From a virus: DNA of 64,000 nucleotides. The position numbers and the translations under genes are program-made. The first letter of the stretch is position 1, and the number at the start of each line of letters is the position of its first letter. A model generated the notes under the pieces. The model did not search any database and had not been told where the DNA came from. It worked only from the letters and a program-made list of their open reading frames with translations. Location of the stretch: positions 24,587 through 88,586 of IMG/VR virus record IMGVR_UViG_3300023184_003179. The stretch is one strand, 5' to 3'. Of the stretch, positions 1,096 through 2,706 are shown in pieces.

Positions 1096-2706
1096 TTACT
1101 TCTTTAGAAGTGCCTTCTGTAGTGCTGCAATCTGCTTGTTGATTGTTGCAATAAGTGCAACGATCATCTTTAGAATTTCAGCATTGCTTACAGTAGCAGT
1201 TGATTCTGCAACCTTGTATGAAACTACTTTAGCAGAATCTGTTGATACGTATGCAGGTAGATCAACTACTGCATTAAACGCACCAGCATTATTACCAACG
1301 GTAAACTGATAAATCTTTGATCCGTTTGTAAATGTATCTGTTGAAGTTGCTGTTCCTATTAGTGTCATTCCACCAGCAGAGATTGCTACTCCAGTTCCAA
1401 GTGTTGCTGCATCATAAACCTTTGCACCTGAAATATCAGTTGCAGAAACAGTTAACTTTGCAATTTCGCCTGGAAGGTATGATTCTTTGTCAAACTTTGC
1501 TGTGTATTTATTAACACCTTGACCGCAACGTGCATCAAACTCATTTGAGTAGATTACGCTTAGATCTGCAAGTGTATGCTTAATACGTACCTTTGTTGAA
1601 CCTGATGTAGAGGCACATGTCCATCCACCAGTTTGCACTACTGTAGCAGATGATGCTCCAGCAACAGAAACGGCAGTTACCTGTGCGTTATACTTTGCAG
1701 TATCAGCAGTTGGAGTGATTCCAGCAAGTTGATTTCCAGAAGCATCCTTGACTGCAAAGTCATATGTTCCTGTACGTGTTCCGCCTGCTTGTGCAATGTC
1801 TTCACCAGAAACTACAATAGATGCAGCCTGTCCAGTAAATGTAATTGACTTAGTTGTTAATACTGTTCCATTGTATGAAATTGTGATTGTTGTTGCAACT
1901 GGCTTGTTCTCATTAGCAGTACCCTGCTTAATGTGAAGAACACCACCTACGCCGTTCTTTGCAGCAAATGAAACTTGTGTGCTTGGAGCACCGTCCCATG
2001 CAACAACTGCTCCATTTGTAGCGGATGCTTGTAGAACACCATTAGTTGCAAGTGTAGCATCATATCCGTCTTTTGCAAGAACGTTTACATATCCTGTTCC
2101 ACCATTTACAACTGTTGTTGATCCAGTAACGTCTACGCTAGAGGCAAGAGTTCCTTGTGTTGCTGTATCTTGAACACGACCAAAACTGTTTGCTACAGAA
2201 AGAATATCTGTCTTTGCAACAGTTCCAGCATAAATTGTCTTGATATCAATAACAGAAATTGCTGCTCCAACTTTTTTCTTTTGAGTTACTGTAATTGTGC
2301 CTGAGCCATTAACAGTTAACTTTACATTTGTAGGCAATCCAACAGCACTTGATGTTGTAGCGGTAAATGTAAATGCCTTACCTAAATTGGTAAGTGTTAC
2401 CCCAGTAGGGTTTGATCCTGCTGCTGTGTAATCAGTAAATGTTGCAGGACCAGAAATTTCTAGTGAAACATTATCGTCTGCTGTAGAAGCCAAGGTATCG
2501 CTTGTTGTTAGTGCAAGAACTGCATTAACTCCAGCCTCTGCCTTAGTTGTGTCTGTCAAAACTGTTACTCCACGAGAACCTGCAGCCAACGAATCTGATA
2601 ATACATATCCGTTAGTTACTGCTGCTGATGCTTGAGGAATTGCAACAAAAAATGTGCTTGCTACTGCTGCAGCCGTAACAAGTGCGATCTTTTTAAATGA
2701 ATTCAT
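1096..2706 (-). CDS. Secreted S-layer-like / cell-surface protein
   Basis: 536 aa. Sec signal MNSFKKIALVTAAAVASTFFVAIPQASA. Body is Thr/Ala/Val/Gly-rich with beta/Ig-like character and one Cys pair. C-terminal amphipathic basic helix NAEILKMIVALIATINKQIAALQKALLKK. SD AAGGAG. Confidence 0.7.
   Translation of the reverse strand: MNSFKKIALVTAAAVASTFFVAIPQASAAVTNGYVLSDSLAAGSRGVTVLTDTTKAEAGVNAVLALTTSDTLASTADDNVSLEISGPATFTDYTAAGSNPTGVTLTNLGKAFTFTATTSSAVGLPTNVKLTVNGSGTITVTQKKKVGAAISVIDIKTIYAGTVAKTDILSVANSFGRVQDTATQGTLASSVDVTGSTTVVNGGTGYVNVLAKDGYDATLATNGVLQASATNGAVVAWDGAPSTQVSFAAKNGVGGVLHIKQGTANENKPVATTITISYNGTVLTTKSITFTGQAASIVVSGEDIAQAGGTRTGTYDFAVKDASGNQLAGITPTADTAKYNAQVTAVSVAGASSATVVQTGGWTCASTSGSTKVRIKHTLADLSVIYSNEFDARCGQGVNKYTAKFDKESYLPGEIAKLTVSATDISGAKVYDAATLGTGVAISAGGMTLIGTATSTDTFTNGSKIYQFTVGNNAGAFNAVVDLPAYVSTDSAKVVSYKVAESTATVSNAEILKMIVALIATINKQIAALQKALLKK

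Follow-up and report, generated by a model that had tools for sequence, protein, structure and literature searches.

Several phages are known to modify the surface of the cell they infect and so to block superinfection, among them phage T5 with Llp, the Streptococcus phage TP-J34 with Ltp, and phages carrying the gtrABC or Oac seroconversion functions. In all of these the phage encodes something that reaches the envelope of infected or lysogenic cells, where it alters the surface that other phages meet. Gram-positive surface-layer (S-layer) proteins such as SbsB, SbsC and Sap of B. anthracis are exported chains of serial immunoglobulin (Ig)-like domains. Gene_23 of the Methylophilales phage Melnitz is annotated as a putative S-layer protein, and the available part of its description postulates an alteration of the receptor directed against superinfection (PMC9004378). 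Here, a gene for a coat-like protein of 536 aa is described from a 64,000-nt stretch of viral DNA (the window), which represents bases 24587-88586 of the 88,586-base IMG/VR record IMGVR_UViG_3300023184_003179, with an estimated completeness of 78%. The gene follows the large terminase gene, terL, of an actinophage. Unlike the small lipoproteins and sugar-modifying enzymes encoded by Llp, Ltp, gtrABC and Oac, its predicted product is a copy of the coat protein of its probable hosts. Melnitz is an unrelated phage with a Gram-negative proteobacterial host, and the available part of its description reports no homology of the gene to a host coat gene (PMC9004378). The chances appear about even that this protein, the phage version of an exported coat protein from an unnamed family, gives the infected cell a phage-specified surface, most likely in order to mask or replace receptors.

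Homology to cellular coat proteins

The coat-like protein gene occupies positions 1096..2706 of the minus strand, stop codon included, and starts with ATG in the list of open reading frames (ORFs). Codons 1-29 (2620..2706, minus strand) were read from the sequence as a Sec-type signal peptide of a phage-specific type, MNSFKK...A-S-A, with a basic n-region, a hydrophobic core and A-S-A ahead of the likely cut; the highest Kyte-Doolittle window of 19 residues begins at residue 7. Neither a lipobox cysteine nor LPXTG was seen on inspection of the 536-aa sequence. Codons 30-505 (1192..2619, minus strand) encode a Thr/Ala/Val-rich chain of Ig-like beta-domains with cysteines at positions 364 and 394, and codons 506-536 (1099..1191, minus strand) encode a C-terminal helix with a basic end, which is common to the cellular coat proteins. 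The mature protein is composed of 15.0% T, 14.2% A, 10.7% V, 10.1% G and 8.7% S. The AlphaFold2 model, built from a 48-sequence alignment, has a mean predicted local distance difference test score (pLDDT) of 82, exceeding 90 over most of residues 190-500; residues 55-499 are all-beta and a single helix spans residues 508-535. This helix ends in KALLKK, has I or L at seven of nine a/d positions in one heptad register and reaches a 19-residue Kyte-Doolittle maximum of 1.67; given these features it could form a coiled coil, lie on a membrane surface, or do both. The protein carries every sequence mark of export. The Sec signal, beta-type body and basic C-terminal helix listed in an earlier note on this DNA are therefore all borne out.

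The same note had proposed a phage-encoded S-layer-like protein resembling the surface-layer proteins of small freshwater actinobacteria, for which cellular homologs had to be sought. Domain databases were of little help: for the coat-like protein Pfam gave no family above the cut-off, with sub-threshold hits to DUF5643 (13 bits) and GP57 (10 bits) only, PHROGs and NCBIfam gave no match, and a tblastn search of 50,697 GenBank phage records returned nothing. Protein clusters held 334 close relatives at the 90% level and 480 clusters at 50% identity. The best phmmer match, P0147, aligns over residues 3-536 with 43% identity and an E-value of 7.2e-81, and 147 clusters were matched at E <= 1e-30. 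The nearest Atlas clusters are labelled 'Viruses 100%', and the idea of a purely viral family that they conveyed was overturned by a scan of Joint Genome Institute (JGI) metagenome contigs with a family alignment, A2, in which at least 427 of 595 stretches were confirmed and the best 80 taken on. Sorting by tblastn with phage and cellular marker proteins placed 86 of 159 loci in a phage context and 30 in a cellular one, the other 43 having no informative flank. A hidden Markov model built from another alignment, A1, retrieved 124 full-length copies: besides the window's own, 55 lie in phage context, 28 in cell context and 40 on short contigs. In A1 the body is about 30% identical, and near-invariant stretches are formed by the signal peptide and the final 30 residues; the invariant columns lie mostly in the C-terminal helix, from L512 to K531, with the motif ..L.AIV.LIA.INKQI.ALQK... 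Homologs thus exist among cell-encoded, exported and variable proteins over the full length, and this part of the earlier proposal stands.

The fold carries it less far. A Foldseek search of the PDB returned Ig-domain chains at E-values of 1e-10 to 2e-8 and template modelling (TM) scores of 0.16-0.29, including SbsB, SbsC, Sap, invasin, PrgB and complement C3. The S-layer structures SbsB (4aq1), SbsC (4uj6) and Sap (9g93/6qx4) were found at E-values of 2e-10 to 2e-8, and with TM-scores of 0.18-0.29 it is only the domain type that matches; the phage protein, moreover, differs from all three by having no SLH or other wall-binding domain. A profile search of the PDB with the coat-like protein gave nothing significant (a Sap domain at E 0.035), and a viral Foldseek library gave generic Ig-domain chains only, at TM-scores below 0.25. 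The predicted fold type is compatible with an S-layer protein and does not identify one.

Phage and cellular copies are cleanly separated by their N-termini. All 55 full-length phage-context copies open with the MNSFKK-type leader or a near variant and none with the cell type, whereas all 28 full-length cell-context copies open with a leader of the MS.KT..KRIALVAV type and none with the phage type. Among cellular copies the mean identity is 64% in the signal peptide, 24% in the outer body, 46% in the last domain and 81% in the helix; between phage and cellular copies the corresponding values are 32%, 19%, 44% and 72%. Phage copies are 75-85% identical to one another throughout, so that within the phage clade the outer body shows no hypervariability. 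The two cysteines are conserved between the phage and cellular proteins. Over the body of 40 distinct intact phage alleles the median ratio of nonsynonymous to synonymous substitution rates (dN/dS) is 0.235, which indicates that the gene is maintained by purifying selection. In a FastTree phylogeny of 114 distinct sequences, rooted at the midpoint, the phage-type copies (45 in phage context and three of phage type on marker-less contigs) form one clade among the cell types, with a Shimodaira–Hasegawa-like support of 100 and a stem length of 0.56; L080, a divergent phage variant, has a long branch of its own. We infer, with the midpoint root as the only rooting, that the gene moved from cells to the phage, because the cellular diversity is far larger and the gene is absent from the nearest cultured phage relatives.

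The cellular copies occupy a characteristic locus. On its upstream side are tRNA genes, a BldC-like helix-turn-helix protein and Sua5, followed by an extracytoplasmic function (ECF) sigma factor (Sigma70_r2 and r4_2) whose sigma domains precede a transmembrane segment. The sigma and coat genes are separated by a conserved, structured leader of about 105 nt comprising three hairpins, one of them capped by a GAAA loop; 13 of the 31 predicted pairs show compensatory change in alignment A3 (L126:9626-9748, L085:6318-6444, L141:9885-10003 and nine more). A search of the cellular locus against Rfam found tRNAs only, the leader matching no family. Downstream of the coat gene are genes for a membrane protein of the Wzy_C (O-antigen-ligase-like) type, for Ugd, epimerase, glycosyltransferase and ABC-2 functions in variable combination, and for PfkB. 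The coat gene stands at the border of this glycan-synthesis island; Wzy_C and glycan genes beside a coat gene resemble S-layer glycosylation clusters. This cellular family, with its sigma factor, leader RNA and coat gene, is the probable main surface antigen of the host bacteria. The phage copy resembles these proteins in its full-length homology, Sec signal, Ig-like chain, cysteine pair and C-terminal helix. It differs in having its own signal peptide and in standing without the ECF sigma gene, the leader (the gap between terL and ATG is 17 nt) and the Wzy_C and glycan neighbours. No homolog of the cellular sigma factor was found in the 88.6-kb record.

A few side observations concern the cellular copies. 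At L146:1160-2857 and L159:3008-4965 a further ECF sigma gene stands after the coat gene, so that some cells may have sigma-coat units in tandem. Distant family members sit on very short contigs of 1.7-3 kb. Of the 43 contigs of 1.7-2.4 kb that contain nothing but a cell-type gene, most begin around the start of the leader, 83-107 nt ahead of the ATG, and run to 0-60 nt past the stop codon, a geometry that fits monocistronic transcripts and assembly breaks at conserved flanks equally well. A scan of GTDB with peptide patterns taken from the window protein alone, which were unable to find cell-type members, confirmed a single stretch out of 232; this 5.2-kb contig, from the bin of a metagenome-assembled genome of Phycisphaerales, has a phage-like neighbour and was taken as a misbinned phage piece. 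For P0296, four stretches of IMG/VR were retrieved and none was confirmed.

The phage itself is an actinophage, as judged by the affinities of its terL and by a WhiB-like protein. The terL product is 53% identical to the terminases of the ~131-kb Streptomyces phages Genie2, Yaboi and Coruscant, and Streptomyces and Gordonia phages account for 232 of the 357 records that match it; the WhiB-like protein encoded by the record scores 47 bits against a cut-off of 23.6. Together with the BldC-like neighbour in the cell loci and the Atlas cluster nearest to the sigma factor, in which Actinomycetota is the commonest phylum (known for 13 of 111 members), these features point to an actinobacterial host. 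The G+C content of the cell-context loci is low (34-49%) and the sequencing runs come from lakes, which also agrees with a freshwater acI-type host. On these sequence-based grounds the host coat family very probably belongs to small freshwater actinobacteria, and probably to acI/Nanopelagicales. These are among the most abundant freshwater bacteria, and the microdiversity of their surface genes is usually put down to phage pressure. To our knowledge neither an exposed coat protein of acI/Nanopelagicales nor any phage counter-move has been described; a literature text search found no publication joining 'Nanopelagicales' with 'S-layer', and none of the titles listed describes such a gene. In Planktophila a large replacement island for cell-surface synthesis, GI1, has been reported, and the available part of that source makes no mention of the coat protein described here (PMC12817590).

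The slot behind terL

The window's terL (2724..4505, minus strand; phrog_17415, E 1.5e-13) ends 17 nt upstream of the coat-like ATG. To see what stands at this place in related phages, 80 viral loci were fetched by terL (84-96% identity; at least 598 of 599 stretches were confirmed), and were therefore not chosen by the coat-like gene. Two of them have no room after terL. In the other 78 an ORF begins 10-59 nt past terL, and in 77 of these it opens with a MNSFKK-type signal peptide, the start of the 78th being probably mis-called. Among 57 complete ORFs, classified by reading of their tails, 12 carry the host-like helix and two the host-like helix with an extra cysteine-containing tail. A related but different helical tail ending in ..KIQKKVKA is found in 15, a tail ending in ..KIMKKLGIK in two, and a tail with ..WN.KNPKAKV.. 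in about 24; the remaining two are broken or otherwise different. The intact classes are 336-575 aa long, and the two ORFs that are broken or otherwise different measure 310 and 464 aa. The window gene is a class A allele and belongs to the host-like class.

The slot is therefore a fixed place for an exported protein, export being predicted, in which body and tail are exchanged as cassettes of at least four classes, as seen in L167-L234 and L067-L080. A widespread lineage of large lake phages with at least 598 terL relatives keeps an exported-protein gene at one place, and a host coat copy takes this place in about one in four of the complete cases. The earlier note had asked whether the gene is hypervariable among related phages; as far as point divergence goes it is not, this being flat at 75-85% identity, and the variation lies instead in the replacement of whole cassettes. 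It is conceivable, if rather doubtful, that the slot is a swap-in cassette for exported 'surface disguise' proteins, in which the host-like class would be a captured coat copy that plugs into the host coat via a shared coiled-coil stalk and re-coats infected acI cells. If true, this would be a direct molecular link between the surface microdiversity of the hosts and competition among phages.

Two of the slot classes show further peculiarities. The ..WN.KNPKAKV.. class is itself a large family, with 1494 matches to the class-D slot protein in a list of close relatives only, which is no guide to cellular homologs of that class. Some host-like variants of 562-563 aa have about 26 extra residues past the helix, forming a basic tail with two cysteines (..TC.KGK....CP.GYKKK); they occur at L029:5739-7427 and in L028, L030, L032-L034, L036, L039, L046, L171 and L205.

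The place of the gene behind terL is not universal. Among 64 class-A loci (at least 60% identity to the window copy, from L002-L080), terL is directly upstream in 57 and the next gene of the window, for an 838-aa protein, lies no more than 900 nt downstream in 42. In four of the 64 (L002, L025, L041 and L055) an upstream stretch of at least 4.3 kb contains no terL. The coat-like gene stands about 6 kb beyond the lysis cassette in L041 (8049-9593) and L055, and it is also away from terL in L087, L093 and L095. Such phages may have another class in the terL slot and the coat-like gene elsewhere. In Streptomyces phage Coruscant, the distant terL relative, terL is followed by an HNH gene and tRNAs and by no relative of the coat-like gene.

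Expression signals and gene neighbourhood

The coat-like gene had been described as a stand-alone expression unit placed right after terL, with a strong Shine-Dalgarno sequence, an upstream TATAAT promoter and its own terminator. The position after terL is as described, and two of the three signals hold. The Shine-Dalgarno sequence AAGGAG (2711..2716, minus strand) was read from the sequence with the ATG 4 nt downstream, and a similar word stands upstream of the gene in 54 of 54 phage relatives. The terminator scan found an intrinsic terminator (1056..1081, minus strand) with a 10-pair stem that includes six GC pairs, a 6-nt loop and a T run; a comparable hairpin and T run follow the gene in 53 of 54 phage loci. 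The TATAAT hexamer (2728..2733, minus strand) is probably no promoter and was rejected as such: it lies within the last terL codons, has no -35 element at the window site, is kept exactly in 18 of 54 phage relatives only, and is absent from the promoter scan of the window, which listed 15 promoter-like sites against 17.5 expected, that is, no excess. The gene therefore has a ribosome-binding site and a terminator of its own and no evident promoter, and a contig from an RNA library runs across its junction with terL, so that the description as a stand-alone unit holds for the first two signals only.

This contig (in X2, spanning 2636-3086) comes from public RNA libraries. In 24 metatranscriptome runs from lakes, freshwater and estuaries, 5-12% of the sampled words were present, and contigs from four runs of four lake studies (at least 85% likeness) cover much of the coat-like gene. 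The depth of such contigs cannot rank genes, RNA libraries may contain DNA, and the parts not covered are uninformative; the data establish the presence of phage-type sequences in RNA libraries and no more than that.

The structural genes are distant. The portal (39360-40985), protease (38009-39319) and capsid-like (36827-37990) genes are about 35 kb from terL, which places the coat-like gene outside the structural module; the alternative named in the earlier note, an unprocessed virion protein, receives no encouragement from this position or from PHROGs. Ahead of terL is a terS-like gene of 178 aa (window 4486-5022, minus strand) without a match in Pfam or NCBIfam; in Coruscant the gene at this position bears the annotation of a putative RNA polymerase sigma factor.

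The gene that follows the coat-like gene begins within the window (2..973, minus strand, from the ORF lists) and encodes a second exported protein, of 838 aa (record G000:23043-25559). This protein starts with a signal peptide and continues through a Thr/Ala/Gln-rich coiled-coil region and a Pro/Glu-rich linker to a hydrophobic C-terminal segment with a final RRR. The flanks of the 30 cell-context loci contain no homolog of it. Other phages have strongly divergent relatives (41-79% identity), and the spacer ahead of its gene holds the extended -10-like word TGATATAAT. Past it on the same strand are a 134-aa membrane protein (holin-like), a CHAP lysin (PF05257, 42 bits) and a proteasome/HslV-like protein. 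The last is a subunit of 179 aa (PF00227, 26.8 bits; G000:21077-21616, minus strand), whose place directly after the CHAP lysin is conserved in relatives.

Possible roles of the coat-like protein

In the reading to which we give about even odds, the coat-like protein would be exported by the host Sec system during infection and cut after A-S-A, and the C-terminal module that it shares with the host protein would dock to, or co-assemble with, whatever holds the host's own coat protein. The infected cell would then display a phage-specified surface. With the receptor masked or replaced, competing phages would be excluded and progeny would not be lost on infected cells and debris. Compared with the surface modifiers known from other phages, three things are new: the homology between a phage gene and the variable coat gene of what is probably the host lineage, the retention of a host-type helix with a putative anchoring role under a phage-specific signal peptide, and the cassette nature of the slot. 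The locus offers a concrete pair of phage and host genes for receptor masking or coat remodelling in a system that belongs to the uncultured majority.

Several observations weigh against this reading. Export, cleavage, surface location and lattice formation of the phage protein are all predictions from sequence, and the host taxon is approached indirectly. No known wall-anchoring module (SLH, CWB2 etc.) was detected by Pfam or NCBIfam. The bodies of the phage and cellular proteins are only 19-44% identical, so that co-assembly with the host coat is not assured. The surrounding genes are of a late type (terS-like, terL, lysis) and no promoter is evident, so that a role in early exclusion fits poorly. 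Finally, the host-like class makes up only 14 of 57 complete slot ORFs, and the host-type helix is therefore not needed for the general role of the slot.

The main rival turns the same helix to another end. A defective or competing subunit made late in infection might take the anchoring or oligomerisation sites of the host coat and so loosen it for the holin and lysin and for the escape of virions. Other actinophages have additional lysis factors to deal with extra envelope layers, and the order terS-like gene, terL, coat-like gene, second exported protein, holin-like gene and CHAP lysin gene is conserved in relatives. The absence of an evident promoter and the RNA-library contig across the terL junction would suit such a late protein, as would a helix common to the host protein under a diverged body. 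The arrangement of the genes, however, also speaks the other way: the strong terminator parts the coat-like gene from the lysis genes in nearly all phage loci, four class-A loci have no terL upstream, and in L041 and L055 the gene is well downstream of the lysis cassette. Other slot classes have no host-type helix, and nothing shows that the host coat hinders lysis. We regard this explanation as unlikely. A looser version of export, in which the protein is an accessory with some other surface role (adhesion, defence against grazers or a released decoy) and its likeness to the host protein reflects shared ancestry only, would account for the variety of the slot, since four or more classes with different tails and lengths of 336-575 aa suggest a general, fast-changing surface or secreted function, and the phage also carries a sugar-modifying gene cluster. 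It leaves unexplained why the helix has been kept at 72% identity to the cellular copies while the rest drifted to 19-44%, a pattern that points to a retained interaction with the host, and on balance it seems quite unlikely.

The protein might instead belong to the virion, its N-terminus not serving for export, and act as a head or tail decoration or as an adhesin that binds the host coat like with like. Phage particles often bear chains of Ig-like domains, the gene adjoins terL, and the viral Foldseek library includes tail and 'virion structural' proteins among its matches, all of these at the low TM-scores given above. Against this, a canonical signal peptide is conserved across all slot classes, the protein has no structural match in PHROGs and is encoded far from the structural module, its neighbours are exported and lysis proteins, and its cellular homologs, which have their own signal peptides, clearly do not belong to virions. 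A virion role is accordingly very improbable.

The sugar-modifying cluster lies outside the window (L081:663-7677 and 11432-12526, in G000). It comprises glycosyltransferase-like proteins, an NAD-dependent epimerase/dehydratase, FkbM-type and other methyltransferases and a PIG-L-like deacetylase, and further a Stealth-like protein as well as a fusion of a nucleotidyl transferase with a HAD domain. Its presence is consistent with a theme of surface remodelling in this phage.

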